A stretch of 64,000 bases of DNA from Nannocystis bainbridge (GCF_028368995.1 NZ_JAQNDL010000003.1:1408001-1472000); one strand, 5' to 3'. Numbered from the stretch's first letter, positions 1-61,633 are shown. The notes: generated from the sequence alone by a model not told the origin. Made by a program: numbers and translations.

Positions 1-870
1 CTCGGCCTGCTCGTCCTGGTGATGGCCTGTGCGCCAGAGCCGGCGCCGCCCGCTGCGGGCACACATGTCCCAGGGGACAGGTCCGAGAAGCTTCCTCACG
101 CCCGCGGACCTGTCCCCGACGACATATCATCTGTCCCTAGAGACAGCCACGTCACCCCGCCGACGACGCTCGCACGCAACCCCGGAGACGCCCCACCCGA
201 GGCGACCGAAGAATCACCCGCTCCGCCCGCCGCTCACTCTGGACCTGTCCCCGGGGACATATCATCACACCCCGAGGCCGCCCCGCCCCTCCTCACGATC
301 GCCCCGCCGCCGGGTCTCCTCGACCTGCGCCGCGAGCTGCCCGGCGCCTGCTTCGAGGTCCGCTACGCCACCGCCGACAACTTCACCGGCGCCGTCCTCC
401 CCGGCTACGACACCCCGGGCGCCTGGCTACGCCCTCGTCCGGCCCGGGCCCTCGCCCGCGTCCAGGCCGCGCTCGCCGGCGACGGCCTCACCCTGCTCGT
501 CCACGACGCGTATCGCCCCGTGCGGGCCAGCCTCGCCATGGTCGCCTGGGCCGAGCGCAGCGGCAGGCGGCAGCTCGTCGACGACGGCTACATCGCCCGG
601 CGCTCCGGTCACAACCGCGGCGACACCGTCGACCTCACCCTCGCGCGCGCGGGCACCTGCGAGCCGCTCGACATGGGCACCGCCTGGGACCACTTCGGAC
701 CCGACAGCCGCTATTCGCGGGCCGACGGCGACGCCCTCGCACATCGCCGACGACTGCGCCGCGCCATGCAAGCAGCAGGCTTCACCCCGTACGACCAGGA
801 ATGGTGGCACTTCACCTTCCGCGACCCGGACGCCGCCCCGCTCGACATCCCCTACGCCGCGGCCCCCTGA
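1..870 (+). CDS. ddpX: D-alanyl-D-alanine dipeptidase (VanX/DdpX, peptidase M15), lipoprotein; 5' end probably lies outside the window
   Basis: Motifs RYATADNFTG, DAYRP, SGHNRGDTVDLTL, LDMGTAWDHF, EWWHF. The frame is open from base 1 (LGLLVLVMAC lipobox), followed by a Pro-rich linker. Confidence 0.9.
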   Translation, partial: LGLLVLVMACAPEPAPPAAGTHVPGDRSEKLPHARGPVPDDISSVPRDSHVTPPTTLARNPGDAPPEATEESPAPPAAHSGPVPGDISSHPEAAPPLLTIAPPPGLLDLRRELPGACFEVRYATADNFTGAVLPGYDTPGAWLRPRPARALARVQAALAGDGLTLLVHDAYRPVRASLAMVAWAERSGRRQLVDDGYIARRSGHNRGDTVDLTLARAGTCEPLDMGTAWDHFGPDSRYSRADGDALAHRRRLRRAMQAAGFTPYDQEWWHFTFRDPDAAPLDIPYAAAP

Positions 871-1049
871 GCTCTCGTCCCATGCCGCAGCGCTGCCCGA
901 TCTCCGCCAAAACCTCACCGCCCATCCTTCCCTACCTCCACGCGATCCACGAAGAACCGCGTTCCCACGGCTCCTCCGCGCCACGCTCTGCCTTGGCCGC
1001 GGTTTGACAGCCACCGCCCGCGCTGGGAGCATCGCCGCCGGAGGTACGA

Positions 1050-1475
1050 ATGCGCCCACTGCTGTCTGTTTCCCTGCCCGCGCTCGCGCTCGCGGGCGTC
1101 GCCCTCACCGCCACCGAGGCCCACGCCAAGGGCCTCGTCCTTATCACCACCGGCGAGAGCGTCCTGCATTATGACGACCTCACCGGCGAGGCCAAGGCCT
1201 TCGCCGCCGAGACCACCGGCCACGAGGTCCAGGTCGGCTATCTCTACAGTCACTTCGGCGTGTTCTGGCTCGACCTGTGGACCTGGGACGGCAAGTACTG
1301 TCTCTACCAGGGCGACAACGTGTGGGAGCTGACCCCGGACGACGCCGCCGGCCTGCTCGGCGTCAAGGTCGACGAGCTCGGCAAGCCGCTGCTCTACCAC
1401 GCCCCGCTGGGTCTCCTGATCTTGCTCGGCCTCGGCGTCGGCCTCGGCCTGTTCTACCGCTTCAGCCGCGATTGA
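1050..1475 (+). CDS. Small secreted/membrane-anchored hypothetical protein
   Basis: GGAGG RBS, signal peptide (AHA), C-terminal TM helix, strong GC3 bias. Confidence 0.75.
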   Translation: MRPLLSVSLPALALAGVALTATEAHAKGLVLITTGESVLHYDDLTGEAKAFAAETTGHEVQVGYLYSHFGVFWLDLWTWDGKYCLYQGDNVWELTPDDAAGLLGVKVDELGKPLLYHAPLGLLILLGLGVGLGLFYRFSRD

Positions 1476-1526
1476 TCGTACCACCCGGGCTCGCCGCACC
1501 GCCGGCGAGCCCGCCTGCGATCCCGG

Positions 1527-2717: not shown

Positions 2718-2725
2718 GAGAGCTC

Positions 2726-4039: not shown

Positions 4040-4104
4040 GCCGGGACTCTACCAAGCTTCGCGCAGCTCGAAGGCGCGAAACCGCGCCCTCGCTCGCATC
4101 GCCG

Positions 4105-5838: not shown

Positions 5839-5851
5839 CGGTCGTCGTCTC

Positions 5852-9320: not shown

Positions 9321-9422
9321 GAAACGGTCTTCCAGACAGCATGTCCCTCGGGACATGTCACCCCGAACGCGAGCGGGCAGCCACCTCGCGGCGACTGCCC
9401 CTTGCGAGCGCTCACGCGCGCC

Positions 9423-10679: not shown

Positions 10680-11300
10680 GCCACGAGCGTGACCCGGGTC
10701 TCGCGCCCCAACGTGGCTCCCTCGCGCTCCCCGGGGCCTCCCTCCTCGCGCCCGCGCCAGCGCGCGCCGGACCCCGCGTGCGCGGCCGCCACCCGCCGGG
10801 CCCGGTCTCTCTTCATATGTCCTTCACGACATGTCGTCCATGACATGTCATGCGAGCGACCTACGCGACATCTCGGCAGTCCGCGAGCGCTCGCCACCAT
10901 CGTCGAGGTCGCGGCCACCGAGCCCGCACCGGCCTCAAGCGGACCCGAGCAGTCGATGATCGCCCTTGCGACACCGCATGCGAGCGAGCGCCTGTGACCG
11001 CCGTCGAATCGCGGCGCCCGGGTCCGCGCCACCGCAAGCAGGCCGCCCGGCCGACGCCGACATCCGCATGACCGCCCTCTTGCCGCCGAACGGCGAGAAC
11101 TGACAGTCGCCGCGACATGAAAAAAACCACGCCGACCCCCGCACCGCTGACGACCGCTCAGACCACCTGTCCATTCGGACACATTATCTGCTTCCCCGCC
11201 CGTCGGCCCCGCGATTCGCAGCTTCATCCTTCGCCGCCCCGCCCCTCGCCCCCGGAACCGCGACTTGTTCGCCCGTGCTCGCCGTGTCACCTTCCGCCGC

Positions 11301-11933: not shown

Positions 11934-12053
11934 CGATCTCGCGGCGCCTCGTCTCCCCGAGGCGCGCGCGTGCCATGACCTTCAAGACATGTCCCCAAGA
12001 TCATCCACGCACGCCTGGCATGATCTTCGAGACATGTCTTAAAGTTCACCTCG

Positions 12054-13591: not shown

Positions 13592-15088
13592 ATGACGAAC
13601 GACCTGCGCTTCCCCGCCCGCAGCTACGACTTTACGCCCTACGTCCCGTGCAACAACTGGATCGGCGGCGAGTTTACCCCCGCCGCCGCCGGCGACAGCT
13701 TGCCGATCGACAACCCGCGCCACGGCAAGACCTTCGGCCACGTCGCCATGTCCGGCGCCGCCGACGTCGCCCGCGCCGTCGAGGCCGCCAAGGCCGCCTT
13801 CCCCGGCTGGCGCGACACCCCGCTCAAGGAGCGGGTCCAGGTCCTGTTCCGCCTCAAGGCCCTGCTCGAGCGCGACCTCGAGGAGCTCGCCTGGCTCGTC
13901 TCGCACGAGAACGGCAAGGTCATCGCCGAGGCGCGGGCCGACGTGCTCAAGGGCATCGAGTGCCTCGAGTACGGCATCAGCCTGCAGAACATGGTCGCCG
14001 GCGAGCAGCTCGACGTCAGCCGCGGCATCAACTGCAGCATCACCTACGAGCCGCTCGGCGTGTGCGCCGGCATCGTCCCGTTCAACTTCCCGATCATGGT
14101 CCCGCTGTGGATGCTGCCGCAGGCGCTCGTGTCCGGGAACACCTTCATCCTCAAGCCGTCCGAGGTCGTCCCCTACGGCGCGATGAAGCTCGCCCAGCTG
14201 CTCCAAGAGGCAGGTCTGCCCGCCGGCGTGTTCAACACCGTCAACGGCGGCCAGCCCGCCGTCGAGGCCATCGCCGACCATCCTGACATCAAGGCCGTCG
14301 GCTTCGTCGGCAGCACCCGCGTCGCCAAGGCCGTCTACTCGCGCAGCGCCGCCGCCGGCAAGCGGGCCCTGTGCCTCGGCGGGGCCAAGAACCACTTGCT
14401 CGTCGTGCCCGACGCCGACCTCGAGCTGACCAGCACCACCGTCGTCGCCTCCGCCTACGGCTGCGCCGGCCAGCGCTGCATGGCCGCCTCGCTGATGATC
14501 GCCGTCGGCGACGTCGATCCGATCGTCGACGCCATCGTCGCCCACGCCAAGAAGCTGCGCCTCGGCGAGGACATGGGCCCCGTCATCCACGGCGGCGCCG
14601 TCGAGCGCATCACCCACTACATCGCCGACGCCGAGCGGCGCGGGGCCAAGATCCTGCTCGACGGCCGCGGCGCCAGGGGCCCCGGCGGCGTCGGCCACTG
14701 GGTCGGCCCGACGATCCTCGACCACGTCAGCCCCGACATGCCGGCCGGCTGCGAGGAGATCTTCGGCCCCGTCCTCTCCATCATCCGCGCCCGCACCGTC
14801 GACGAGGCGATCGCCATCGAGAACGCCAGCACCTACGGCAACGCCGCCTCGATCTTCACCCAGAACGGCGCCGTCGCCCGCTACTGCATCGAGCGCTTCG
14901 AGGCCGGCATGTGCGGCGTCAACATCGGCGTGCCCGTCCCGCGCGAGCCGTTCTCGTTCGGCGGCTGGAACCAGTCGCTGTTCGGCGCCGGCGACCTGAC
15001 CGGCTGGGACGGCCTGCGCTTCTGGACCCGCGCGCGCAAGCTGACCACCCGCTGGCAGCTCAGCAAGGACGCCACCTGGATGTCCTGA
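13592..15088 (+). CDS. mmsA: CoA-acylating methylmalonate/malonate-semialdehyde dehydrogenase
   Basis: PFNFPIMVPLWM, GFVGST, GGAKNH, GCAGQRCMA (catalytic Cys), EEIFGPV, GVNIGVPVP. Confidence 0.93.
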   Translation: MTNDLRFPARSYDFTPYVPCNNWIGGEFTPAAAGDSLPIDNPRHGKTFGHVAMSGAADVARAVEAAKAAFPGWRDTPLKERVQVLFRLKALLERDLEELAWLVSHENGKVIAEARADVLKGIECLEYGISLQNMVAGEQLDVSRGINCSITYEPLGVCAGIVPFNFPIMVPLWMLPQALVSGNTFILKPSEVVPYGAMKLAQLLQEAGLPAGVFNTVNGGQPAVEAIADHPDIKAVGFVGSTRVAKAVYSRSAAAGKRALCLGGAKNHLLVVPDADLELTSTTVVASAYGCAGQRCMAASLMIAVGDVDPIVDAIVAHAKKLRLGEDMGPVIHGGAVERITHYIADAERRGAKILLDGRGARGPGGVGHWVGPTILDHVSPDMPAGCEEIFGPVLSIIRARTVDEAIAIENASTYGNAASIFTQNGAVARYCIERFEAGMCGVNIGVPVPREPFSFGGWNQSLFGAGDLTGWDGLRFWTRARKLTTRWQLSKDATWMS

Positions 15089-15093
15089 GGGAC

Positions 15094-16455
15094 ATGTCCG
15101 AGCAGCCCTCCGAGCCCCCGAGGATCTCCGCCATGGACAGCCGCACCATCGTCGAACTCTGCAAGCAACACACCATGTGGTCGTGGTCGAAGAGCGGCCC
15201 GCTGCAGCCGCTCGCGTTCGAGCGGGCCGAGGGCGTGTACCTCTACACCCCCGAGGGCAAGCGCTACCTCGACTTCAACAGCCAGCTCATGAGCGTCAAC
15301 ATCGGCCACAGCCACCCCAAGGTGCTGGCGCGGATGAAGGACGCCATCGACGGCCACATGCTGTTCGCCGCCCCGAGCGCCGCCACCCCCGTGCGCGCGC
15401 GCCTGGGCCAGCGCCTGGCCGAGCTCGTGCCCGGCGACATCAACTCGTTCTTCTTCACCCTCGGCGGCGCCGAGGCCAACGAGAACGCGATCAAGGCCGC
15501 CCGCCTCTACACCGGCCGCCACAAGATCCTCAGCCGCTACCGCAGCTACCACGGGGCCACCCACGCCGCCATGCAGATGACGGGCGACCCGCGCCGCTGG
15601 GCCAACGAGCCCGGCGCGTCCGGCTTCGTCCGCGTCATGGACCCGATCCCCTACGACTTCAGCTTCGGCAACACTGACGCCGAGCGCACCGCGAATCACC
15701 TGCGCTACCTCGAGGAGATCATCCAGTACGAGGGCCCGCACACGATCGCGGCGATGTTCGTCGAGACCGTCATCGGCACCAACGGCATCCAGCCGCCGCC
15801 CGAGGGCTGGCTGGCCGGCCTGCGCGCCCTGCTCGACAAGTACGGCATCCTCCTCGTGTGCGACGAGGTCATGTGCGGCTTCGGTCGCACCGGCAAGCTG
15901 TTCGCCTTCGAGCACTTCGGCGCCCAGCCCGACATCCTCACCATGGCCAAGGGCCTCACGTCCTCGTACGTCCCGCTCGGGGCCATGGGCGTGACCGACA
16001 AGATCGCCGCCCACTTCCGCGACAACGTGTTCTGGGGCGGCCTCACCTACAACGCCCACCCGTTCTGCCTCGCCGTCGCCGAGGCCGTGCTCGACGTCAT
16101 GCTCGAGGAGGACATGGTCGGCAACGCCGCCCGCATGCAGCACGTCATGCTCGCCGAGATGGCCGCCCTCAAGGCCAGGCACCCGAGCGTCCGCGACTTC
16201 CGGGCCATCGGCCTGTTCGGCGCCATCGAGCTGCAGAAAGACCGCCAGGGCACCCGCATGGCCCCCTACAACGGCTCGCACCCGGCCATCGACCGCATGA
16301 TGGCCTTCTTCAAGCAAGAGGGCCTGTTCACCATCTCGCACTGGTGGACCCTGATGTGCAACCCGCCGCTCTCGATCACCGAGGCCGAGCTGCGCGAGGG
16401 CTTCGCCATCATCGACCGCGGCCTCGCCATCACCGACGAGGCCGTCGAAGGCTGA
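15094..16455 (+). CDS. Class III PLP aminotransferase (beta-alanine/omega-amino acid type)
   Basis: GGAEANE, SYHG, DEVMCGFGRTG, MAKGLTSSY (PLP Lys); starts 5 bp after mmsA. Confidence 0.9.
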   Translation: MSEQPSEPPRISAMDSRTIVELCKQHTMWSWSKSGPLQPLAFERAEGVYLYTPEGKRYLDFNSQLMSVNIGHSHPKVLARMKDAIDGHMLFAAPSAATPVRARLGQRLAELVPGDINSFFFTLGGAEANENAIKAARLYTGRHKILSRYRSYHGATHAAMQMTGDPRRWANEPGASGFVRVMDPIPYDFSFGNTDAERTANHLRYLEEIIQYEGPHTIAAMFVETVIGTNGIQPPPEGWLAGLRALLDKYGILLVCDEVMCGFGRTGKLFAFEHFGAQPDILTMAKGLTSSYVPLGAMGVTDKIAAHFRDNVFWGGLTYNAHPFCLAVAEAVLDVMLEEDMVGNAARMQHVMLAEMAALKARHPSVRDFRAIGLFGAIELQKDRQGTRMAPYNGSHPAIDRMMAFFKQEGLFTISHWWTLMCNPPLSITEAELREGFAIIDRGLAITDEAVEG

Positions 16456-19989: not shown

Positions 19990-20538
19990 GCCTCACCGAG
20001 GCCCTCTGACGACCGCGCCGGCCCCCGCCTGCGCGGTCGTCGACGTCTGGCCCCACGACGCGGGCGGCGAATCTCGCCATCCACGGTCGCGCTGCGATCG
20101 TCGCGTCCCGGCGATCGCCGCCCGGCGGACTCGCTAGAATCACGGCGCGGCGTCGATCGACACCCCGCGAACTCGCTGCGAATCAATCCGCGCGGCGTCG
20201 AGTTCTCGCCCACGAGCTCGTGGTCTTCGAGGCCCCTCGCCAGCTGCTGTCACATGCACCTTCGGACATGCCCGAAGGGTCATGTCTCGTCATGACCTCA
20301 CCCCGCCCCGGACCGCGGCGCCTCGATCGCCGGCCCGGTCGAGCCCGCCGGGCCGCCCCCGCCTGGCCCCTCGCTGCCCGCGCGACCGCGCGCCCCGCGG
20401 CGAACCTGTCCGAAGGGCCATCCTTTCCCATCCTCGCCCGAGGCCGGTTTGGGGCCCCTGTGCCACCGGGGCGGCCCGCGCGGGCTCCGCCGTCGTTGCA
20501 CGGGCCCCGCGGCGGGCGTAGGCTTGCGACACTCCACC

Positions 20539-21264: not shown

Positions 21265-21462
21265 GGCGGCCGGCTCGCGCCGGTCTCTTCAGACATGAAT
21301 GTTGGGCCAGGTCTCTTGGGACCTGGCCCTTTGTACATGGGGCGGCAGCGCCCCGCAGATAACTACCCGGACGTCACGTGTCTGGGGGCGCGGGCCCACG
21401 CGCCCGACCGGAGGTTTCTGCCTCATTGATTCGCGAGACACGCGCCGCTACCGTGTGCGGCC

Positions 21463-24975: not shown

Positions 24976-24989
24976 CGGCTCGCTCTTGG

Positions 24990-25067
24990 GACATGTCACC
25001 CGCGACATGTCCCTCGCACCATGCACGAAGGGACATGCCCACGAGGGCATGTCCCTTTCACCATGTC
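24990..25067. repeat. 14-bp-phased TGTC-N6-GACA array (6 junctions)
   Basis: CATG cores at 24992, 25006, 25020, 25034, 25048, 25062, between convergent genes. Confidence 0.85.
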
Positions 25068-25080
25068 CGCTCTGGGAGCG

Positions 25081-26193
25081 TCAGGTCGCCGCGCCGTAGC
25101 CGGGGATCACCTCGGCGAGCGCCTTGGCCAGCACGTCGAGCTCGGCGTTCGTGCCGACGCCGACGCGCAGGCAGCCGCCCAGGCGCGGCAGGCCCGAGGC
25201 GTCCTTGACCAGGACCCCGCGCTGGGCCAGCTCCAGAGCGACGCGAGTGGCCTCGCCGGGCGGGTCGAGGCGGACGACCGCGAAGTTGGCGGAGGCGGGG
25301 AAGAGCTTGGCCTTGGGGATCTTGCCGAGGATCCCGACCAGCTTCTGCCGCGCCGCCAGGCTGCGGGTCAGCATCGCCTTCTGCACGCCCTCGAACTTGG
25401 TCAGCACCAGCTCGGCGATCGCCTGGCTGGTGGCCGACACGTTGTACGGGTTGCGGACCACGTTGAGCGGCCGCCGCAGCGCCGGCGGGGCCACGCAGTA
25501 GCCGACCCGCAGCGCCGCCAGCCCGATCTTCGACAGCGTCGACATGTAGACCACGTTGTCGGGCAGGCCCGCGCGCCACAGCGACGCCCCCGGCGCGTAC
25601 GAGATGTACGCCTCGTCGAGCACGAACACCGTCCCCGGGTGCTGCGCGATCAGCCGCTCGATCACCGCCGCGTCCCACAGGCTGCTGGTCGGGTTGTTCG
25701 GCCGGGCCAGGAAACACAGCGCCGCGCCAGTGGCGACGTCGAGCGCCTCGTGCAGCAGCGGCTCGTCGAGCTCGAGCTCCTCGGTGAGAGGCACCTCGAG
25801 CACGCCGATCCCGCGGCAGCGCGCCGCGTGGCCGTACATGTGGAAGGTCGGCGTCGGCACGACGAGGAAGCTCGGCTCGCTCGGCCGTCCGCCCAGCGCG
25901 GTCAGCAGGAAGCCGATGATCTCGTCGCTGCCGCAGCCGATCACCACCGCCTCCGGGTCGACCCCGTGGCGCTGGGCCAGCAGCGCCCGCAGCTTGCGCC
26001 CCGACGTGTCGGGATAGCGGGCCAGCTCGATCTGCGCCACCCGCTTGCCGATCTCCTGCATCACCTCCATCGGCCACGGCTCGGCCAGCTCGTTGGACGC
26101 AAGGCGTGCCTTGGCCGGCACTGGCTCGATGTCATATACGTCGAGACCCGCGAGCGCAGGCCGCAGGTGGCGGGTCCATTCAGATGTCGTCAT
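25081..26193 (-). CDS. hisC: Histidinol-phosphate aminotransferase
   Basis: LASNE, RYPD, GCGSDE, PNNPT, DEAY, TLSKIGLAALRVGY; adjacent to hisD. Confidence 0.9.
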   Translation of the reverse strand: MTTSEWTRHLRPALAGLDVYDIEPVPAKARLASNELAEPWPMEVMQEIGKRVAQIELARYPDTSGRKLRALLAQRHGVDPEAVVIGCGSDEIIGFLLTALGGRPSEPSFLVVPTPTFHMYGHAARCRGIGVLEVPLTEELELDEPLLHEALDVATGAALCFLARPNNPTSSLWDAAVIERLIAQHPGTVFVLDEAYISYAPGASLWRAGLPDNVVYMSTLSKIGLAALRVGYCVAPPALRRPLNVVRNPYNVSATSQAIAELVLTKFEGVQKAMLTRSLAARQKLVGILGKIPKAKLFPASANFAVVRLDPPGEATRVALELAQRGVLVKDASGLPRLGGCLRVGVGTNAELDVLAKALAEVIPGYGAAT

Positions 26194-26230
26194 GAACATG
26201 TCCTCCGGGTCATGTCTTAAGTGCTATGTC
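26181..26230. repeat. 14-bp-phased array spanning the hisD/hisC junction
   Basis: (C/G/T)ATG cores at 26183, 26197, 26211, 26225. Confidence 0.7.
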
Positions 26231-28913: not shown

Positions 28914-30068
<1,155 letters not shown>

Positions 30069-30134: not shown

Positions 30135-30155
30135 GGCGATGACGATGGCGTTCGG

Positions 30156-30220
30156 GACATGTCCTCACGGGCATGTCCCGATCGACATGTCCCATGTGGC
30201 ATGTCCCGTTCGACATGTCC
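30156..30220. repeat. 14-bp-phased TGTC-N6-GACA array (5 junctions)
   Basis: CATG at 30158, 30172, 30186, 30200, 30214. Confidence 0.85.
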
Positions 30221-37905: not shown

Positions 37906-39662
37906 CTGTGCTTCGGGACATGTCCGTTCGCACCTGTCTCTTGGGACTTTTGCTCGTCCTCGCGTGCGACAAGCCGGCCGGCGAGTCGACCCCGCCGGGC
38001 AAGACCGCCGCCGCCGAGCCCGACGCCAATTGGAAGCCCGAGGCCGTCGAAAAGCCCGCCGAGCCCGCCGCGAGCGACAAGCCCGCGGCCAAGAAGAACC
38101 GCGACCGCGACCCCGAGGAGGAGCGGCGCAAGCTGGCGGCCTCGCACCAGCAGAGCCAGCAGGCCGGCCAGTCGCTGCGCCAGGGCGACCTCTCCCGCGC
38201 GCTCGACCTCTCGCGCGAGGCCCTGCGGATCCACGAGCAGAACGTCGACGCCATGCTCGTCATGGCCGAGGCCTTCCTCAAGCAGGGCAAGCACGAGCTG
38301 ACCCAGACCGTCACCAGCTCGGCGCTCGCCGTCGACGCCAAGGTCATCACCCCCGAGGAGACCTCGCGCGCCTACAACCTCAAGGGCTTCGCCTACCTCG
38401 CCGCCGACAAGCCGACGCTCGCCACCCAGTCGTTCCGCAAGGCCGCCGAGACCGACGCCGGCAACGCCACCGCGTGGAACAACCTCGGCGCGCAGTACCT
38501 CCGCACCGGCAACTTCAAGACCGCCAGCGAGTGCTTCATCTACGCGCTGAAGCTCGACCCCAACTTCTTCAAGGCCCACCTCAACCACGGCAGCGCGCTG
38601 CGGGCTCTGGGTGACGTCGTCGGCGCCGAGAAGGCCTACCAGGCCGCGCTGCGCCTGCGCGCCGACTACCCTGACGCCCACTTCGACCTCGGCGTGCTCT
38701 ACCTCGACGCACCCGAGTTCCCCGGCCTCGACATCACGACCCGCCTGCAGCGCGCGCTGATCCACTTCGGCAAGTACCGCGACCTCGCCCTCGCCAGCGG
38801 CGGCGGCGCGGCCAAGGGAGATCGCTTCACCGATCTCAAACGCGACACCGGCGCCAACAAACCCCGCACGGCCCCGGGCAAGGAGTCGGTCAGCGTCGCC
38901 CAGGCCGACCTCTACATCGACCTTGCCAAGAAAGGCCTCGAGCGCGAAAAGCGGCGCCTGGAGCGCGAGGGCAAGTCGCCACCTGTCTCGAAGGACAGCC
39001 CGGCCGCCCCCGGCACCGCGACCTCACCTGGCCCCAAGGACAGCCTGCCGGCCGCGGCCACGCCCGCCGCAGCCTCGACTGCACCTGGCCCCAAGGACAG
39101 CTCGCCGACGAAGCCCGGCGAGCCCCCGGCCGCGACCAATCCGACTCCGGGCAGCCCGGCCGGCTCGCCCAAGCCAGGCGCCTCCACCCCCGCCGCCAGC
39201 CCGCCGACCGCCGGCTCGCCCACGGCCGCCAAGCCCGGTGCCTCGGCCCCGCCGACGGCCACGACCCCGCCGCCCGCCGGCCCCGGCAGCTCCGGACCCG
39301 CCGCCACCCCTCCGGCCGCCAGTTCGCCCGCCACCACCCCGCCGGCCACCGCCAAGCCCGGCGCCCCGCCGCCGGCCACCGCCAAGCCCGGCACGCCGCC
39401 GCCGGCCACCGCCAAGCCTGGCACGCCGCCGCCCGGCAATGCGCCCCCGGCCACCCCGCCGGCCGCCAGCGCGCCCTCGGCCACCCCGCCACCGACCGCC
39501 AAGCCGGGCGGGACCGCTCCCCCGCCGACCGCGACCGCCAAGCCTGGCGAAGCCCCTCCCACGGCGAAGCCCGGGGCTCCGCCGCCGTCGGCCCAGAAGC
39601 CCGGAAGTGCGGCGTCGCCCACCCAGAAGCCGGGCGGCAATGGGGGCGCGAGCGCCCCATGA
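37902..39662 (+). CDS. TPR lipoprotein (GltE/AglT-like) with a long Pro/Ala/Thr-rich tail
   Basis: Lipobox VLAC; TPRs AWNNLGA, AHLNHGSALR, AHFDLGVLYL; PPPATAKPG repeats. Start may be 37920. Confidence 0.8.
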   Translation: MTVLRDMSVRTCLLGLLLVLACDKPAGESTPPGKTAAAEPDANWKPEAVEKPAEPAASDKPAAKKNRDRDPEEERRKLAASHQQSQQAGQSLRQGDLSRALDLSREALRIHEQNVDAMLVMAEAFLKQGKHELTQTVTSSALAVDAKVITPEETSRAYNLKGFAYLAADKPTLATQSFRKAAETDAGNATAWNNLGAQYLRTGNFKTASECFIYALKLDPNFFKAHLNHGSALRALGDVVGAEKAYQAALRLRADYPDAHFDLGVLYLDAPEFPGLDITTRLQRALIHFGKYRDLALASGGGAAKGDRFTDLKRDTGANKPRTAPGKESVSVAQADLYIDLAKKGLEREKRRLEREGKSPPVSKDSPAAPGTATSPGPKDSLPAAATPAAASTAPGPKDSSPTKPGEPPAATNPTPGSPAGSPKPGASTPAASPPTAGSPTAAKPGASAPPTATTPPPAGPGSSGPAATPPAASSPATTPPATAKPGAPPPATAKPGTPPPATAKPGTPPPGNAPPATPPAASAPSATPPPTAKPGGTAPPPTATAKPGEAPPTAKPGAPPPSAQKPGSAASPTQKPGGNGGASAP

Positions 39663-41128: not shown

Positions 41129-41232
41129 GGCGGTCCGGCTCGAAGCCTGTTCACGAGGACATGTCCTTCAAGACAGACCCAGGGCCGACCGCAGACCAAC
41201 TCTCCACCCGAGCGAAAGAAAGGAGGTGAACG

Positions 41233-46158: not shown

Positions 46159-46770
46159 ATGCCCGCACCTCCACGCAGCGGCCTCTCCTGGCTCGGCTCC
46201 GGCCTCGTTCTCTTGCTGTCCTTCGGGACAGCTTGTGATCGCCCGGTCCGCACCCATGCCCCGGTGATCGCCCCGAGCGCCGGCCTGCGCCCGGGCGACG
46301 AGCTCGACATCCGCGTGTTCGACGAGGACCGCTTCAACGGCACCTACGCGGTCGCCGAGGACGGCACGATCGATTTCCCGATGGTCGGCGGCGTCGCGGT
46401 CACCGGCCTCACCAAGGACGAGGTCGCCCGTCACATCGAGACCAAGCTCGCCGATGGTTACCTCAACCATCCGCACGTCGTGGTCCAGATCAAGGAGCGC
46501 GGCAACCGGGAGATCAGCATCCTCGGCCAGGTCAACGAGGCCGGCTCGCTCGGCTGGCGCGACGGCCTCACGCTCGTGCAGGCCGTCTCGCTGGCTGGCG
46601 GCCTGACCCCCTTCGCCGCCCCTGCGCGCGTCAAGCTGACCCGCCGCACCGGCCGCGGCGAAGAGACCGTGACCTTCGAGATCTCCCTCTCGGCGATCGT
46701 CGACGGCCGCGCCGAGGACCTGGTCTTACGGCCAGGTGACATCGTGTTCGTGCCTGAGACCCGGATGTAA
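46159..46770 (+). CDS. Short OPX/Wza-family polysaccharide export protein (Poly_export plus SLBB only)
   Basis: LRPGDELDIRVF, DGTIDFPMVG, GQVNEAG, AGGLT, LRPGDIVFVP; lacks the C-terminal OM helix. Confidence 0.9.
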   Translation: MPAPPRSGLSWLGSGLVLLLSFGTACDRPVRTHAPVIAPSAGLRPGDELDIRVFDEDRFNGTYAVAEDGTIDFPMVGGVAVTGLTKDEVARHIETKLADGYLNHPHVVVQIKERGNREISILGQVNEAGSLGWRDGLTLVQAVSLAGGLTPFAAPARVKLTRRTGRGEETVTFEISLSAIVDGRAEDLVLRPGDIVFVPETRM

Positions 46771-49698: not shown

Positions 49699-50154
49699 AT
49701 CGCACCGCCTGTCCCCAGGGACAGGCTCACCGCGAGCACCGTGCCCGCGCAACTCGGGGCGGGCTCGCCCGCGCGAACGACGAGCGCATCGTGCGTCGCG
49801 GCCTCCGAGCGAGCCGCCTCGGCCCGCGTGGCCATCGAGCGCATCCTGATCGCCCCGCATCGCGCAAGGCGCTCGCCTCGGCCCACGCAGACGCCGATCG
49901 CGTCGCTGCCCGTGACCCGCGAGCGCATCACGCGACCGCGCCACGCGCGTCGGCAGGGGATCGTCCTGCGCGCGCTCGCCCGACCCTCCATAGCGACTCG
50001 CCGAGCAGCACCCGCGCCAAGGCTCGCGCCCCCGCGAGCGAGCGAGCGCGCCAATCGTGCCCACGAGGCCGCCCCGGGCCAAGCGCCGCTCGCGTCCACG
50101 GCCACCTGCCCGGGCCTGAACCCGCGTCGCCGCAAAATGTGTCAAGCTCTCCGC

Positions 50155-50562: not shown

Positions 50563-50589
50563 TCTTCTTCCCCGTTCTTAAAAGGAAGA

Positions 50590-50655
50590 GACATGTCCTC
50601 TGCGACATGCTTCCGAGGACATGCTCATCGGGACATGTCCTCGTGAGCATGTCCT
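50590..50655. repeat. 14-bp-phased array (5 junctions)
   Basis: CATG at 50592, 50606, 50620, 50634, 50648. Confidence 0.85.
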
Positions 50656-53218: not shown

Positions 53219-53235
53219 ATCCATGCGTCCCATCG

Positions 53236-53328
53236 GTCTCCAAGGACATGTCTCGAGAGACACATCAATCGCTCACGCGTGAGCCCGACCGTAAACTCTG
53301 TCTCCAAGGACATGTCCCGAGAGACAAT
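53236..53328. repeat. Two copies of a 27-bp double unit of the 14-bp array
   Basis: gtctccaaggacatgtc(t/c)cgagagaca at 53236 and 53300. Confidence 0.8.
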
Positions 53329-53342
53329 CTTAAAAAAAGGAC

Positions 53343-54997: not shown

Positions 54998-55025
54998 CGC
55001 CACGACCGAGTCGAGGCTCTCTTCA

Positions 55026-55103
55026 CCCATGTCCCAAAGAACATGTCCTCCGGAAAATGCCCTTCAAGACATGTCTTGAAGAACATTCCCCGAAGGACAT
55101 CCC
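55026..55103. repeat. 14-bp-phased array (6 junctions)
   Basis: Cores at 55028, 55042, 55056, 55070, 55084, 55098. Confidence 0.8.
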
Positions 55104-55110
55104 GAGATCC

Positions 55111-56124
55111 TCACACAGGGTCGCTCGCCAGCGTCACCCCGAGCGCCGAGCCCAGCGCCAGCAGTTGCCGCGGCGACGCGCAGCCCAGGTGCTCCGGCGA
55201 CAGCTTCCCTGCTCGCCGGCGCAGCAGCCACGACCCGGCCGGGTGGGCGGCAGCCGCCCTTCCGAACTCCTCCCCGGCCGTCTCGGCGATCCGTGCCACC
55301 TCCGCGTCGAGCCGCTCGCGCAATTGCGGCAGCGCCCCGCGCAGCGTCGTCAGCCAATGCTGCACCTGGTCGAGCACCGCCCCGTCGAGCTCCGGATCGC
55401 GGAGCGAGCGGACCTTCTTCTCGATCTGCTCGAACGTCATCGTCTGCCACGGCAGCGTGCGCAGCACCGGCGCTTGCCACTCGCCGCGCACCCGCGCCCA
55501 GTGATCGGCGCGCGCCGGCACCGACACTAGTTTAAACTGCGGCAGCAAGAGCCCCGTCAGCCGCATCCCGTGGCACACCCCGGTGTCGATGCCGAAGATC
55601 CGGTCGCGCAGCACCAGCGGCTCCGGTCCGACCACCGCGTGCCCGAACACCACCGGCTTGTCGTCGTCATAAAACTCGTACCAGGGCCGCTCGCCGAAGC
55701 GCTCACGCAGCCGCGCCTCGCCCGACGTCGTGCCCGCGCGCACGTCCTCCGGCACCTCGTCGAGCGGCACCCCGGGGAACAGCCCCCAGTGGACCACCCG
55801 CACGTCGTCGCGCTCCCAGTGGTACGGCAGCGTCGCCATCCAGCCGACGTGGTCCGCGTAATCGGCCCCGAGCTGCAGCTTCGCCACCTGCTGCGAATAC
55901 GAAAGCACCCCGCGGATGTGCTTGCGCTCGTGGTTGCCGCACAGCGCCAGCGAGTGCGGCCGGCTGCGAAACAGCTCGACCACCGAGCTCGGGTCGGGCC
56001 CGCGGTCGACCAGGTCGCCGACGCTGACCACCAGGTCGTCGTCGCCGATCGCCGCCACGTCGAGGAGGTCGAGCAATTCGGCGTAACAGCCGTGAATGTC
56101 GCCGATGATGAGCGTGGACTGCAT
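55111..56124 (-). CDS. Calcineurin-like metallophosphoesterase (ApaH/PrpA type) with a helical C-terminal extension
   Basis: GDIHG, GDLVDRG, GNHE, FGH, IDTG. Confidence 0.9.
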   Translation of the reverse strand: MQSTLIIGDIHGCYAELLDLLDVAAIGDDDLVVSVGDLVDRGPDPSSVVELFRSRPHSLALCGNHERKHIRGVLSYSQQVAKLQLGADYADHVGWMATLPYHWERDDVRVVHWGLFPGVPLDEVPEDVRAGTTSGEARLRERFGERPWYEFYDDDKPVVFGHAVVGPEPLVLRDRIFGIDTGVCHGMRLTGLLLPQFKLVSVPARADHWARVRGEWQAPVLRTLPWQTMTFEQIEKKVRSLRDPELDGAVLDQVQHWLTTLRGALPQLRERLDAEVARIAETAGEEFGRAAAAHPAGSWLLRRRAGKLSPEHLGCASPRQLLALGSALGVTLASDPV

Positions 56125-57241: not shown

Positions 57242-57331
57242 TCGCCGCATTCCCTGCGACTGCCACCATTCCACCGACCTCTTGCTTATTTTCTCCCCAA
57301 GCTCGCCTGCAAACGCGGCATCCTCCCGATC

Positions 57332-57589
57332 ATGACCACCCCGCGAACGCTCCTCCTCGCCCTCGCCGGCCTCCTCGGCGCCTGCGCCGGCAAGTCGAAC
57401 CCTCCGCCCGCCGACAACCCCGGCGGGGTGGCCTGCACCATGGAAGCCAAGGTCTGCCCGGACGGCAGCGCCGTCGGCCGCACCGGCCCGAACTGCGAGT
57501 TCGCCCCCTGCCCCGGCCCCGCCGGCGAATCGCCCGAGAGCGAGACCCCGCCGCCCGCCGAGCCGCCGAACCCGCCGCCGTCGCCCTGA
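57332..57589 (+). CDS. Small lipoprotein with a 4-Cys module CTMEAKVCPDGSAVGRTGPNCEFAPC
   Basis: Lipobox LGAC; paralog immediately downstream. Confidence 0.8.
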   Translation: MTTPRTLLLALAGLLGACAGKSNPPPADNPGGVACTMEAKVCPDGSAVGRTGPNCEFAPCPGPAGESPESETPPPAEPPNPPPSP

Positions 57590-57611
57590 CCGGGTAGCGC
57601 CCGAACGCATG

Positions 57612-57707
57612 GACATGTCCCAAAGAACATGCTCCATGCGACATGAGACACAACTGTAGCGATGGCTCGCCAGGACATGTCCAACAGGACATGTCCAACA
57701 GGACACG
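57612..57707. repeat. 14-bp-phased arrays between the two paralogous lipoproteins
   Basis: Cores at 57614, 57628, 57642 and 57676, 57690, 57704; exact tandem caggacatgtccaa. Confidence 0.8.
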
Positions 57708-57872: not shown

Positions 57873-58100
57873 ATGAACACCACGCGCACGCTCCTCTTCA
57901 TCGTCGCCGGCCTCGTCGGCGCCTGCAAGTCGGACAAGCCCCCCGCCGAAGATCCCGGCGCCCCCAAGGCCTGCACCAAGGAGGCCAAGGTCTGCCCCGA
58001 CGGCAGCACCGTCGGCCGCACCGGCCCCGATTGTGAATTCGCCGCGTGCCCCGAGGGCAGCGAGACCCCCGAGACGCCCGAAGAGCCGCCCACGCCCTGA
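57873..58100 (+). CDS. Small lipoprotein, tandem paralog (CTKEAKVCPDGSTVGRTGPDCEFAAC)
   Basis: Lipobox VGAC; near-identical Cys module. Confidence 0.8.
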   Translation: MNTTRTLLFIVAGLVGACKSDKPPAEDPGAPKACTKEAKVCPDGSTVGRTGPDCEFAACPEGSETPETPEEPPTP

Positions 58101-58329
58101 GCCCCTCTAATCCGGTGCGCGCGGGCGGGCGACCCAACTGCTCGCGTCCTCGGTGCACACGCGACGAGCCCGCAGCGCCCGCCGCCCGCTTCACGCATAG
58201 TGGCGGCCCCCGCGGCCGGCTGCGCGCTCGCAGCCGCCGCCGCTCGCCGGCCCACCGCTCCCCGCTCTCACGCCACCGCGGCCCGCCCGGCCCCCGATCG
58301 GCCCACACCGTGCCGACCGAGGTTGTCCC

Positions 58330-58827: not shown

Positions 58828-59943
58828 ATGCGCGACCCACTCGTCGAGCTCACCGAGCGCGGCCTCTACTGCCGCGCGGGCGACTTCTACATCGACCCCT
58901 GGCAGCCGGTCGACCGCGCCGTCGTCACCCACGCCCACAGCGACCACGCCATCGGCGAATGTGCGCACTACCTCACCGCGGCGCCCGGCCGTGACCTCCT
59001 TGCCATGCGCGTCGGCGACGGCGCCGCCATCCAGCCGCTCGCTTACGGCGAAGCGATCGTCCACCACGGCGTCGGCGTCTCGCTGCACCCGGCCGGTCAC
59101 ATCCTCGGCTCGGCCCAGGTCCGGCTCGAGCACCACGGCGAGGTGTGGGTCGTGTCCGGCGATTACAAGCTGAGCCCCGACCCCACCTGCGCCGCCTTCG
59201 AGGCGGTGCGCTGCCACTGCTTCATCAGCGAATCGACCTTCGGCCTGCCGATCTTCCGCTGGGCCCCGCCGGCCGCCACCATGCACGACGTCGCCGCCTG
59301 GTGGCGCGCCAATCAACAGAGCGGCCGCACCTCGCTGCTGCTGTGTTACGCGCTCGGCAAGGCCCAGCGCCTGCTCGCCGGCCTCGACCCCGAGATCGGC
59401 CCGATCTACGTGCACGGCGCCGTCGAGCGCTGCAACGCCGTCTATCGGGCCGGCGGCGTGCGCCTGCCCGCGGCCCCGCCGGTGCTCGAGGCGGCCCGCA
59501 GCGCCGAGTTCGAGCGCGCCCTGATCCTCGCCCCACCTTCCGCCCAGGGCACCCCGTGGACCCGCCGGTTCAAGCGTCCGGTCCGCGGTTTCGCCTCCGG
59601 CTGGATGCAGATCCGTGGCACCCGTCGGCGCAAGGTGGTCGACCGCGGCTTCGTCCTGTCCGACCACGCCGACTGGCCCGAGCTGCTGGCCGCGATCGCC
59701 GGCACCGGGGCCGAGCGCGTGCTGGTCACCCACGGCTACGCCCAGGCGCTGGCCCGCCACCTTTGCGAGCGCGGCCTCGACGCCCAGCCGCTCGCCACCC
59801 GCTTCGTCGGCGAAGCCGGCGGCGAGGAGGTTTTGCCCGCACCCGAGCCCACGGACGCGAGCGACCCCCCGGAGGATGAGCCCGCGGAGGATGAACTTTC
59901 GGACATGTCCGAACCACCAGCCTCCGAGGAGACCGCACCATGA
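58828..59943 (+). CDS. Ligase-associated DNA damage response exonuclease (metallo-beta-lactamase/beta-CASP)
   Basis: IDPW, THAHSDH, AGHILGSAQ, SGDYK, ESTFGLP, YALGKAQR, SDHADW. Confidence 0.92.
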   Translation: MRDPLVELTERGLYCRAGDFYIDPWQPVDRAVVTHAHSDHAIGECAHYLTAAPGRDLLAMRVGDGAAIQPLAYGEAIVHHGVGVSLHPAGHILGSAQVRLEHHGEVWVVSGDYKLSPDPTCAAFEAVRCHCFISESTFGLPIFRWAPPAATMHDVAAWWRANQQSGRTSLLLCYALGKAQRLLAGLDPEIGPIYVHGAVERCNAVYRAGGVRLPAAPPVLEAARSAEFERALILAPPSAQGTPWTRRFKRPVRGFASGWMQIRGTRRRKVVDRGFVLSDHADWPELLAAIAGTGAERVLVTHGYAQALARHLCERGLDAQPLATRFVGEAGGEEVLPAPEPTDASDPPEDEPAEDELSDMSEPPASEETAP

Positions 59944-60046
59944 CCTCCGCGCCTCATCATCCTGTCCTCGGAGACATGCTCGAAGCGACATATCATCATT
60001 GTCCCGAGCGCCATTTTAATAATGACCCTCTCCGGGGCTCCGCGTC

Positions 60047-61633
60047 ATGAGATCGTTCGCCGCGCTCTACGCCGCCCTCGACGAGACCACCCGCACCAGC
60101 GAGAAGGTCGCGGCGATGCGCGCCTACCTGGCCGCCGCGCCGCCCGAGGACGCCGCCTGGGCCGTCTATTTCCTGATCGGTCGCAAGCCGCGGCAGGCCG
60201 TCGGCGCCCGCAAGCTGCGGACGTGGGTCAGCGAGGCCGCCGGCGTGTCCGAGTGGCTGTTCGAGGAGTGTCACGAGGCCGTCGGTGACATCGCCGAGAC
60301 CGCCGCCCTGCTGCTCCCTCCGCCCTCGCGCACCACCGAGCAGCCGCTGCACCGGTGGGTCCACGATCGCCTGCTCCCGCTCGCCGGCAAGGACGAGGCC
60401 GCCCAGCGGGCCGACCTGCGGGCCGCCTGGGACGAGCTCGACCGCAACGAGCGGCTCGTCTTCCACAAGCTGATCACCGGGGCCTTCCGCGTCGGCGTGT
60501 CGCAGCGGCTCGTCATCGCCGCCCTCGCCGAGCTCGGCGAGCTCGCCCCGGCCACCGTCGCCCACCGGCTCATGGGCGACTGGCAGCCCTCCGCCGCCCA
60601 GTTCCGCGGCCTCGTCGCCGCCGAGTCCGACCAGCCGAGCGCCTCGCGGCCCTACCCGTTCCTGCTCGCGCACGCGCTCGAGGGCGAGCCCGCCGAGCTC
60701 GGCCCGCGCGACGCCTGGCAGGCCGAGTGGAAATACGACGGCATCCGGGCCCAGGTCGTCCGCCGCGGCGGCCAGCTGTTCGTGTGGTCGCGCGGCGAGG
60801 AGCTGATCGGCGAGCGCTTCCCCGAGCTCGCCGCCGCCGCCGGTCGCCTGGCCGAAGGGACAGTTTTGGACGGCGAGCTCTTGCCGTGGAAGGACGGCGA
60901 GCTCCTGCCGTTCGCCGAGCTGCAGCGGCGGATCGGCCGCAAGAACCTGTCGCGCACGATCCTCGCCGAGGTCCCCGTCACCTTCCTCGCCTTTGACGCG
61001 CTCGAGGCCGGCGGTCGCGACCTGCGCGAGCGCCCGCTCGCCGAGCGCCGCCCGATCCTCGAGCAATTGCTGGCCCCGCTCGCCGGCGAGGTCCTGCGCG
61101 TGTCGCCGGTCGTCACCGCCGCCACCTGGCAGGAGCTCGCCGCCCTGCGCCAGGACAGCCGCGCCCGCGGCGTCGAGGGCCTGATGCTCAAGCGCCGGGC
61201 CGCGCCCTACGGCGTCGGCCGCGTGCGCGGCGACTGGTGGAAATGGAAGCTCGACCCGCTCGTCGTCGACGCCGTGCTGGTCTACGCCCAGTCGGGCTCC
61301 GGCCGCCGCGCCAGCCTGTTCACCGACTACACCTTCGCCGTGTGGCAGGACGGCGCCCTGGTCCCGTTCTGCAAGGCCTACTCCGGCCTCACCGACGCCG
61401 AGCTGACCGAAGTCGACCGCTTCGTCCGCGCCCACACGCTCGAGCGCTTCGGCCCGGTCCGCAGCGTCACCCCCGAGCTGGTGTTCGAGATCGGCTTCGA
61501 GGGCATCGCCCGCTCGCGCCGCCACAAGTCCGGCGTCGCCGTCCGCTTCCCGCGGATCCTCCGCTGGCGCCGCGACAAGCAGCCCGTCGACGCCGACCAC
61601 ATCGACGCCCTCGAGGCCCTGCTCGGCGCCTGA
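60047..61633 (+). CDS. ATP-dependent DNA ligase
   Basis: EWKYDGIR (KxDG), LDGE, EGLMLK, WWKWK, VRFPRI. Confidence 0.95.
   Translation: MRSFAALYAALDETTRTSEKVAAMRAYLAAAPPEDAAWAVYFLIGRKPRQAVGARKLRTWVSEAAGVSEWLFEECHEAVGDIAETAALLLPPPSRTTEQPLHRWVHDRLLPLAGKDEAAQRADLRAAWDELDRNERLVFHKLITGAFRVGVSQRLVIAALAELGELAPATVAHRLMGDWQPSAAQFRGLVAAESDQPSASRPYPFLLAHALEGEPAELGPRDAWQAEWKYDGIRAQVVRRGGQLFVWSRGEELIGERFPELAAAAGRLAEGTVLDGELLPWKDGELLPFAELQRRIGRKNLSRTILAEVPVTFLAFDALEAGGRDLRERPLAERRPILEQLLAPLAGEVLRVSPVVTAATWQELAALRQDSRARGVEGLMLKRRAAPYGVGRVRGDWWKWKLDPLVVDAVLVYAQSGSGRRASLFTDYTFAVWQDGALVPFCKAYSGLTDAELTEVDRFVRAHTLERFGPVRSVTPELVFEIGFEGIARSRRHKSGVAVRFPRILRWRRDKQPVDADHIDALEALLGA

Follow-up and report, generated by a model that had tools for sequence, protein, structure and literature searches.

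The window analysed here, a stretch of 64,000 nucleotides from Nannocystis bainbridge, a member of a genus of soil bacteria, carries many copies of a 14-bp inverted repeat, TGYCC-N4-GGRCA. The units occur singly or chained head to tail with no linker, and in the chains the abutting halves of neighbouring units give RRRCATGYYY cores every 14 bp. The form TGTC-N6-GACA is found 30 times in the window as compared to 0.57 expected, and none of 100 shuffles reaches 30. The junction sequence GACATGTC is found 24 times (0.67 expected). The statement in an earlier note on this DNA that the junctions read exactly GACATGTC was too strong, because the cores are degenerate: RRRCATGYYY is accompanied by variants one letter off, for example CCTG, CAGG, and CATT. 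The 14 arrays listed in that note all lie on in-phase cores. CATG is exact throughout in 5 of them, and 12 match at least three of the four letters at every position; the exceptions, at 41146 and 53297, each have a single full core between half cores.

Many of the arrays lie between convergent genes. Two in-phase cores (9337..9360) separate the ORFs 8160-9320(+) and 9423-9785(-), two 2-core arrays (11971..12039) lie in the gap 11933-12054, and a 6-core array (24989..25068) fills the gap between the ORFs 23830-24975(+) and 25081-26121(-). As RNA, either strand of this last array forms two core-core hairpins, and a different array stands behind the same stop codon in each of the four relatives in which the anchor was found. 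The 5-core array at 50589..50654, in the convergent gap 50562-50625, overlaps the end of the (-) ORF and is found in all four assessable relatives, with differing spacers and unit numbers. Two capped single cores (53244..53330) occupy the convergent gap 53218-53343. In the gap 54997-55111, there is a 6-unit array with three exact CATG (55025..55104), whose minus strand gives a 27-bp hairpin with 5 G.U pairs.

Other arrays lie behind genes or in tandem gaps. A degenerate 5-unit array (21277..21340; two exact CATG, four of five positions matching at least three of four letters) lies directly 3' of the stop of ORF 20539-21264(+), a 5-core array (30155..30220) about 90 bp past that of ORF 28968-30068(+), and a degenerate 3-unit array (59958..59995) past that of ORF 58828-59943(+). 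An isolated unit, CCTGTCC-N4-GGACAGG (49705..49728), is found 9 bp past the stop of ORF 48169-49698(+), in a gap that holds one to five such units in relatives. The tandem gap downstream of ORF 19021-19989(+) holds a 3-core array (20250..20287), and the gap between the ORFs 25081-26121(-) and 26224-27387(-) a 4-unit array with two exact CATG (26180..26230). One full core with two half-core caps, cTGTTC-N4-GGACATGTCC-N4-AGACAg (41143..41177), lies between co-directional ORFs and recurs at the same place in four of five relatives. A single unit plus core (15081..15099) covers the stop codon of ORF 13580-15088 as well as the beginning of ORF 15094-16455. Two arrays lie 3' of a small ORF at 57611..57705, one of three cores and one of 2.5 identical units, CAGGACATGTCCAA; the latter (57673-57705) exemplifies a minority of arrays that are young. 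The window also holds a 3-unit array in which one core reads ATATGT (10813..10850), cores and three TGTCC-N4-GGACA units within a 48-51-bp tandem repeat (31870..32080), and four single TGTC-N6-GACA units clustered at its start (60..264; at 66, 111, 132, and 246). Of the single units reported earlier, two lie in coding sequence. One (38984..38997) is inside ORF 37950-39662(+), and the other (46217..46230) encodes part of a lipoprotein signal peptide, LLSFGTAC, and is probably outside the array system.

The arrays are a genome-wide phenomenon and the motif is evenly distributed across all contigs. TGTC-N6-GACA has 3663 matches in the genome, whereas control spacings of N0-5 and N7-19 have 29-175; at N20, which equals 14+6, there are 984. 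For TGYCC-Nk-GGRCA, 2828 matches are found at k=4 and 18-93 at each other k between 0 and 12. The distances between CATG positions peak at 14 bp (3736) and its multiples (2073 at 28, 1586 at 42, 751 at 56, 383 at 70, and 391 at 84 bp), as compared to about 70-130 at off-phase distances and about 300 at multiples of 3. In intergenic DNA, 3242 CATG pairs are 14 bp apart, versus 53 pairs 13 bp apart and 59 pairs 15 bp apart. Both the enrichment of the N6 palindrome and the 14-bp periodicity anticipated in the earlier note are thereby confirmed. Arrays with at least three cores number 1071, and their lengths fall off near geometrically with a ratio of about 0.55. They end in half cores: the upstream cap has T at 0.47-0.53, G at 0.67-0.71, and C at 0.52-0.62, and the downstream cap is its mirror, GGrCA.

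Copies resemble each other only within the 10-bp core. Adjacent units agree at 8 or more of 10 variable positions in 4.8% of 2468 pairs, as compared to 1.6-1.8% of random pairs. The spacer thus varies while the phase stays fixed, as had been claimed, and a simple slippage minisatellite, in which neighbours should be alike, is rejected. Strict spacing together with spacers that differ like random ones indicates that insertions and deletions are removed and substitutions are not. The two half sites vary almost independently, with a mutual information across the spacer of 0.008-0.013 bits in 2733 pairs. Each array is unique. No array-only sequence common to unrelated loci was found, and the 32-mers common to different arrays all lie within larger duplications or at the same locus, which rules out a copy-and-paste origin. 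MITEs, which are marked by terminal inverted repeats and target-site duplications and whose copies within a family are near-identical, are ruled out on the same grounds.

The arrays start at a median of 14 bp downstream of a stop codon, and the cap often overlaps the stop itself (spike at -3). Arrays are present in 35% of the intergenic regions between convergent genes, in 9% of the tandem ones, and in 4% of the divergent ones, at densities of 1.57, 0.35, and 0.09 per kb, respectively; the density is lowest in coding DNA, about 100 times below that of convergent gaps. The preference for gene ends and convergent gaps described for the window is therefore general. Of the 1071 arrays, 943 are intergenic and 128 have their midpoint in a called ORF. 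Of the latter, 96 lie deep inside good ORFs, which include carA, recQ, iucA/C, and clpB; these copies are in frame and sit in variable loops of the proteins.

In a search of the genomes of 185,579 species, 75 of 78 matches to the motif fell in Nannocystis and near kin. Triple cores number about 480-850 in six genomes, which form one subclade, and 0-12 in five others. The same intergenic gaps hold arrays across relatives; unit number and spacers change, and the phase is kept. In orthologous in-frame arrays of CarA, RecQ, and IucA/C, the mean pairwise difference is 0.11-0.17 for cores and 0.33-0.55 for spacers, while that of third codon positions elsewhere in these genes is 0.12-0.18. The spacers thus change more rapidly than third codon positions. 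In carA and recQ, the cores are kept at fixed positions across six species. Such a constraint inside translated linkers cannot derive from a role at the 3' end of an RNA.

No published description of such phased 14-bp arrays was found, in agreement with the earlier note, and they seem to be undescribed so far. REP sequences are portrayed, in the abstract of PMC3733652, as imperfect 20-40-bp palindromes that are tagged at one end by GTAG or CGTC, and proposed roles of REP/BIME in termination, mRNA stability, and supercoiling are named there. The Nannocystis arrays resemble the REP/BIME of enterobacteria and pseudomonads in being high-copy, clustered, lineage-specific extragenic palindromes behind genes or between convergent ones. 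They differ in the 14-bp unit, in head-to-tail chaining at exact phase, and in the lack of likeness outside the 10-bp core. The flanks carry only half-core caps and no GTAG/CGTC tag. A RAYT gene (Y1 transposase, PF01797) was found in 0 of 11 Nannocystis genomes with a completeness of 64-91%, in a search whose control was positive in 6 of 14 known genomes. The suggestion of a new REP- or HIP-like element holds as a description, in that the palindrome is extragenic, present in many copies at the 3' ends of genes, and restricted to the genus, and membership in RAYT-mobilised REP/BIME is rejected. Rickettsia palindromic elements (RPE), families of like copies of about 100-150 bp, likewise have no known transposase and are also found between genes and in frame inside conserved protein genes; the Nannocystis arrays, in contrast, are unique, have a 14-bp unit, and are in coding DNA in only a small minority. 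HIP1 of cyanobacteria (GCGATCGC) is likewise a short, lineage-restricted, hugely over-represented palindrome of coding and non-coding DNA, but is a single octamer without phased arrays or 3'-end bias. CRISPR arrays, with repeats of 24-48 bp, unique spacers of similar length, few loci, and cas genes, are ruled out by the 10-bp core, the 4-bp spacer, and the 1071 loci. The p53 response-element half site is RRRCWWGYYY, and the core consensus GGACATGTCC is identical to it in letters; this is a coincidence of sequence that implies no p53-like protein in bacteria.

There is also a likeness to cooperatively bound operator arrays such as the MetJ metboxes (8-bp period), Fur hexamer arrays, and ParR/omega iterons. 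These, too, consist of short, often dyad-symmetric units in head-to-tail order and exact register, and the dimers bound to the units contact their neighbours. They are found at a few promoters or at one centromere per replicon, whereas the Nannocystis arrays stand behind genes at more than 1000 loci. A cooperative operator array would show exact spacing, a complete half site at either end, and half sites that are independent of each other, and the Nannocystis arrays show all of these. Our best reading, held at somewhat less than even confidence, is that the arrays are a new REP-like repeat family that is read as double-stranded DNA by a putative symmetric protein in a 14-bp register.

A possible but rather unlikely alternative is that the arrays act as RNA, i.e., as direction-independent terminators or 3' stabilisers of the upstream mRNA. 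Adjacent cores would form 10-bp stems with 4-nt loops, or longer hairpins, and copies inside genes would be melted by translation. Such a role would account for the location right behind stop codons and between convergent genes. Seven folds of four window arrays have Z-scores of -4.6 to -7.1, with strong hairpins on both strands, and canonical terminators are scarce (13 versus 6.9 expected in 20 kb, 2 of the 13 inside arrays). In their place in convergent gaps and their hairpins on both strands the arrays resemble bidirectional intrinsic terminators, with a GC-rich stable hairpin just after the gene. They differ from them in having intragenic copies, a fixed stem sequence, and a loop fixed at 4 nt, which a hairpin does not need; nor is there a T-tract behind them, T being 0.11-0.18 over positions +13 to +40 of 389 oriented tandem arrays. 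The arrangement of spacers adds little, -1.3 of about -37 kcal/mol, to the folding of 501 convergent arrays (p ~1e-15 versus spacer-shuffled versions), but only -0.5 kcal/mol, near nil, in the 389 tandem arrays. In convergent arrays, the pairing-compatible association is confined to adjacent cores (odds ratio 1.4-2.2; about 1 at i+2 and i+3), and an excess complementarity of +0.02 to +0.10 reaches out to 16 nt from spacer centres. Some pairing signal is thus present, including the 13% of convergent arrays that fold more than 5 kcal better than their spacer-shuffled versions and the 27-bp hairpin in the window, and it speaks against the protein reading. Covariation in the arrays is weak and the 4-nt spacing strict. 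Combinations with a C.A mismatch show no depletion (549 versus about 520 expected), and CATG and the half sites are kept as sequence, beyond mere pairing, also in translated linkers, where a role at RNA ends is absent. In tandem gaps, the sense strand folds better than the antisense by 1.7 kcal, but convergent arrays show a plus/minus difference of equal size (293 versus 206), and the difference may be one of strand composition. No known RNA family was recognised: an Rfam search of the window with 4227 families gave no match at gathering score.

It is slightly less probable again, and in our judgement unlikely, that the arrays have no reader and are a self-maintaining palindromic minisatellite that goes back to an old burst in the common ancestor of the species rich in arrays. 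The cores would be kept alike by short-tract exchange or template switching between the loci, of which there are more than 1000, and only arrays at harmless insertion sites would survive. The lineage-specific burst in triple cores, the order of densities with variable loops as havens within genes, and the near-geometric lengths are consistent with this. So are the proto-unit present at the carA site of an array-poor relative, the change in copy number from about 1 to about 6 units across species in one ATPase loop, and a degree of recent duplication (8 or more of 10 variable positions agree in 4.8-10.8% of unit pairs at lags 1-6, versus 1.6% of random pairs). Exchange would also make spacers outpace third codon positions. 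Against it, unrelated loci share no array-only sequence, adjacent units are mostly unrelated, carA and recQ cores are fixed in position, no RAYT gene was found in the 11 genomes, and Vsr is present in only one of them. Moreover, homologous exchange is expected to be inefficient between 10-bp cores split by 4-nt mismatches. An uptake or recognition signal enriched by biased uptake and recombination, like DUS of Neisseria and USS of Haemophilus, which are known to form inverted pairs behind genes, is very improbable: the one-genus motif, its even spread over contigs, and its excess in coding DNA (982 units at k=4 versus 11-79 at other spacings) would suit it, but exact 14-bp tandem phasing with dyad symmetry is not known from such signals, and coding DNA is so much poorer in arrays than convergent gaps.

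As to recognition by a symmetric protein, the proposal of cooperative dimer sites made earlier fits the strict N4, the loss of phases shifted by 1 bp, the half-site caps, the near-independent half sites, and the cores conserved in coding linkers. Against it, restriction to one genus with a burst in one subclade is seen more typically with selfish repeats than with a host regulator. PadR was considered as the reader, as its box ATGT-N8-ACAT presumably fits the array motif, and was rejected with 0 gene matches in the organism's own genome; no second candidate emerged. No DNA-binding gene is found among the neighbours of the longest array. In a 5+4+5 site with a 14-bp period, successive dimers are 120 degrees apart around the helix, a geometry for which we know of no precedent.

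Based on these features, a symmetric (dimeric), sequence-specific protein may recognise the arrays as double-stranded DNA, with one dimer per 14-bp unit and adjacent dimers in contact. Single-base changes in spacing would not be tolerated because neighbouring dimers touch, while whole units could be gained or lost by slippage or unequal exchange between cores. The arrays would persist where they do little harm, which is downstream of stop codons, especially in convergent gaps, or in frame within variable protein loops. RNA hairpins forced by the array sequence would be a secondary effect. The arrays deep inside ORFs such as carA, recQ, and clpB fit poorly with a strong roadblock and weaken that part of the earlier proposal. 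In Nannocystis, the arrays would probably act as marks or insulators at the ends of transcription units, as a barrier to read-through or to the diffusion of supercoils.

The earlier note held that TGTC-N6-GACA occurs across the window, singly and in chains, and that the junctions of chained copies read GACATGTC, exactly every 14 bp. The palindrome is indeed over-represented there (30 found against 0.57 expected, and none of 100 shuffles gets to 30), as is the junction GACATGTC (24 against 0.67), and all 14 arrays that had been named fall on in-phase cores. The phase stands; the uniform junction does not, since many cores are one-off variants around CATG. When the whole genome is scanned (11.05 Mb, 71.5% G+C, five contigs), the predicted N6 spacing yields 3663 matches, against 29–175 at each other spacing from N0 to N19; at N20, which is one unit further, there are 984. 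Distances between CATG occurrences show the expected autocorrelation, with genome-wide peaks at 14, 28, 42, 56, 70, and 84 bp (3736, 2073, 1586, 751, 383, and 391). Intergenic CATG pairs number 3242 at 14 bp versus 53 at 13 bp and 59 at 15 bp, and their counts drop ~0.55 per additional unit. Because this fall-off is almost geometric and the bumps at 42 and 84 bp reflect the multiple-of-3 background of coding DNA, a three-unit super-period of 42 bp was dropped.

A profile on in-phase CATG chains gives the unit nnGGRCATGYCCnn, composed of a 10-bp core, RRRCATGYYY, and four spacer bases that contain more A+T than the genome. Arrays are closed by half cores, (C)TGyCC at the left end and GGrCA(G) at the right; the building block is thus a 14-bp inverted repeat, TGYCC-N4-GGRCA, as had been proposed. 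Array units without CATG are mostly single-letter variants (CCTG, CAGG, CATT, AATG). There are 2074 chains with at least two in-phase CATG, 1071 of which span at least three cores and are referred to here as arrays; few exceed seven cores, and the longest has 20 units (contig C3 of the organism's own genome, G000, positions 1237911-1238190). The loop of a unit measures 4 nt in 2828 units versus 3 nt in 93 and 5 nt in 54. The spacer spectrum is broad, with shares of 5.1% for GAAG/CTTC and 4.3% for TTCG/CGAA, and a tetraloop preference was therefore rejected. Genome-wide, the bases flanking CATG within one core are anti-correlated: ACATGC and GCATGT are preferred to ACATGT and GCATGC, with an odds ratio of 0.39 for convergent arrays and 0.63 for oriented tandem ones; strand skew accounts for this only in part.

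Arrays are concentrated behind genes. Based on our own crude GC3-based ORF picker (7855 ORFs, 80–83% coverage), whose error carries into the gap classes and the 'coding' labels, convergent gaps hold 501 of the 1071 arrays (0.35 per gap, 1.57 per kb), tandem gaps 389 (0.09 and 0.35), and divergent gaps 53 (0.04 and 0.09), and the remaining 128 fall in called ORFs by midpoint. Of 1355 convergent gaps, 58% contain one or more cores or units, compared with 26% of 3964 tandem gaps and 18% of 1444 divergent ones. The first core begins a median of 14 bp after the nearest stop codon, with quartiles of 6 and 37. For tandem-gap arrays the median distance is 23 bp to the upstream stop and 192 bp to the start that follows. 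Measured from the cap, i.e. the terminal half core, arrays abut the stop, and in 71 cases the cap begins 3 nt before the ORF end and so overlaps the stop codon. Textbook terminator-like sites are scarce in 20 kb (13 against 6.9 expected, two of the 13 inside arrays), and no T-tract was found downstream of arrays. Clustering around ori or ter was rejected, as arrays are distributed across all five contigs.

The window has several other features. A tandem repeat at 30239-30601 (period 82 or 71 bp, ~4 copies) directly follows a five-core array and carries one GACATGTCC or GACATGATC core per copy. Another, at 31896-32091 (period 48–51 bp, 2–3.4 copies, one pair 100% identical), has a TGTCCCTCGGGACA unit in each copy and lies at or before the start of the ORF at 31967-34417. 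A pair of paralogous small ORFs (57330-57600 and 57890-58170), each with a lipoprotein-like leader and a Cys-rich body, falls in a 1088-bp gap left by the ORF picker, and the first is followed by arrays at 57611-57705. The long 15/30/60-bp periodic repeats rich in CCG/CCA at 39297-39567, inside the ORF at 37950-39662, are a Pro/Ala/Thr-rich coding repeat.

Units also occur inside genes. TGYCC-N4-GGRCA has 982 matches in called coding DNA versus 11–79 at other spacings, evenly distributed along genes, and 96 of the 128 ORF-borne arrays lie deep within ORFs that are long and score highly, with the reading frame running through the array. Eight of ten host proteins checked have Pfam domains; the array lies between domains in CarA, RecQ, and an IucA/IucC enzyme, and within a domain envelope in a ClpB-like protein and a P-type ATPase. 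CarA is 404 aa long in all six array-rich Nannocystis genomes (the organism's own and five relatives), where the array sits in the linker joining its two domains; in one array-poor genome of the genus it is 385 aa and the site has only a proto-unit, CCTGGTC-gctg-GGACAGGTC, and the outgroups have no unit at this site. The P-type ATPase (locus L104, G000 C3:999422-1001689; orthologues L141-L145) has one hypervariable loop, with protein lengths of 672–843 aa. Its in-frame units vary from ~1 to ~6 among six genomes, each module being a capped core that reads VSxDMS. A 200-kb stretch of C3 (~0.99-1.19 Mb) contains 12 of the first 40 ORF-deep arrays listed.

No two arrays are the same. In a sample of 40 six-core arrays no spacer pattern is shared, and neighbouring units are alike at eight or more of ten variable positions in 4.8% of 2468 pairs versus 1.6–1.8% of random pairs. 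Arrays have 34 18-mers in common where 10 are expected, and nine 32-mers where none is; among the 32-mer matches listed, all lie within larger duplications or one locus, and copy-and-paste mobility was rejected on this ground. A RAYT gene is absent from all 11 genomes of the genus in a search whose control worked. Identical multi-copy segments, flanks included, occur at G000 C2:839-2144, C5:711216-712521, and C5:715385-716690, and also at C1:4522353, C1:4526216, and C2:3023418; some are inverted and near contig ends, and either segmental duplication or an unresolved repeat in the assembly accounts for them.

In four comparable gaps, relatives with flanking genes 82–96% identical have an array in the corresponding position. 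The number of units, the spacers, and the distance to the stop differ, and the phase is kept; array-poor relatives have no array behind the same gene. In frame-fixed alignments of CarA, RecQ, and IucA/C the mean pairwise difference is 0.11–0.17 in cores and 0.33–0.55 in spacers, and 0.12–0.18 at third codon positions of the rest of these genes. Spacers are thus free and cores held, while whole units are gained and lost.

Triple RCATGY at 14-bp spacing occurs 850 times in the organism's own genome and 475–536 times in the five relatives (12–13 Mb). Five further genomes of the genus, smaller and less complete, have 0–12 occurrences; among eight other genera of the family one has a single occurrence, and the 12 other families of the class that were scanned have none. 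With the reversed control pattern the count is 0 or 1. A stricter double-core pattern, scanned across 185,579 species with one genome per species, finds 78 loci, 75 of them in records whose titles name Nannocystis, Nannocystaceae, or one Myxococcales MAG. What remains is three isolated hairpins of two cores each, of which two come from other phyla. The repeat system is real, very strong, and genus-restricted, and it is apparently undescribed so far, in that titles and abstracts in the literature yielded no published description of it.

Since the core is conserved and the spacers are free, something reads the sequence or renews it. The best explanation, to which we give slightly less than even credence, is that a symmetric putative protein reads the arrays as double-stranded DNA in a 14-bp register; this is suggested by the exact spacing, the closed and nearly independent half sites, and the cores held in any context. 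An alternative, a serious one if on balance unlikely, is that RNA hairpins of the arrays act as terminators or stabilisers. The arrays do fold well (Z-scores -4.6 to -7.1), and one strand of one array forms a hairpin of 27 bp that includes five G.U pairs, but the motif itself supplies ~96% of the folding energy. Variable positions in adjacent cores of convergent arrays are associated Watson-Crick-wise (odds ratios 1.4–2.2, p 3e-3 to 3e-7), an association that is gone at two or three units' distance. Complementarity about spacer centres is 0.02–0.10 above the permuted null, to 16 nt, in convergent arrays. These fold 1.3 kcal/mol better than their own-spacer shuffles, with a gain above 5 kcal in 13%, although for tandem-gap arrays the gain is just 0.5 kcal. 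All these pairing effects are small. The sense strand folds 1.7 kcal better in tandem gaps, but convergent arrays show an equal plus/minus difference, and strand composition may explain this advantage. Of the 501 arrays in convergent gaps, 293 fold better on the minus strand and 206 on the plus (1.7 kcal, p = 4e-7), and the minus strand has more G.U pairs; this is a strand composition skew. Also against pairing as the main constraint are C..A mismatch combinations at chance frequency, the fixed 4-nt loop, a phase exact to the base although spacers appear substitution-saturated, the conservation of specific letters, foremost CATG, and the persistence of the core constraint in translated linkers. 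That the repeat maintains itself, with no reader, is a further alternative, only a little less likely than the hairpins.

In a more elaborate and frankly doubtful version of the protein reading, the arrays would be loading platforms for a putative Nannocystis protein that polymerises on DNA in 14-bp register, acting as a sequence-programmed insulator behind most transcription units. Three dimers would occupy four helical turns of the array, and the protein would stop read-through and the spread of supercoils between convergent genes. If true, this would be a bacterial counterpart of DNA-bound terminators of organelles and eukaryotes, e.g. mTERF and Reb1.

No reader candidate emerged among PadR, the D12 methyltransferase, and the neighbours of the longest array. 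PadR was considered for its box ATGT-N8-ACAT, which we take to resemble the arrays, and was rejected: PF03551 has no match in the 11-Mb genome, so that no PadR-family gene was found there, while the control search matches 14 of 14 reference genomes. The 20-unit array is flanked by a YbjQ-like protein and a PLP enzyme and has no DNA-binding neighbour. As drivers, Vsr repair was rejected, with Vsr in one of 11 genomes, and so was a D12-class adenine DNA methyltransferase (single copy, locus L147, G000 C1:3591550-3592293), which is conserved across 10 of the 11 Nannocystis genomes, whether array-rich or array-poor, and shows no correlation with array richness. The two versions compared are 69% identical, and an apparent N-terminal extension is an open-frame artefact.

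Among known systems, REP/BIME elements are alike in position and copy number, but here there is no RAYT gene in the 11 genomes, no end tag, and a unit of only 14 bp; Rickettsia palindromic elements are alike in their in-frame coding copies. Textbook terminators are few in myxobacteria and other high-GC bacteria, and how transcription units end in them is poorly known. In Nannocystis the same tiny palindrome, in an exact 14-bp step, stands behind a large share of genes, with at least one copy in 58% of convergent gaps, and in metagenomes the arrays offer a convenient marker of Nannocystis DNA. If a protein reads them, it would be a DNA organiser of a new type, acting genome-wide; if what matters is the RNA hairpins, they would be programmed terminators of a new class, one that lacks the U-tract; and if neither is true, this would be the smallest known self-maintaining repeat that invades protein genes in frame.
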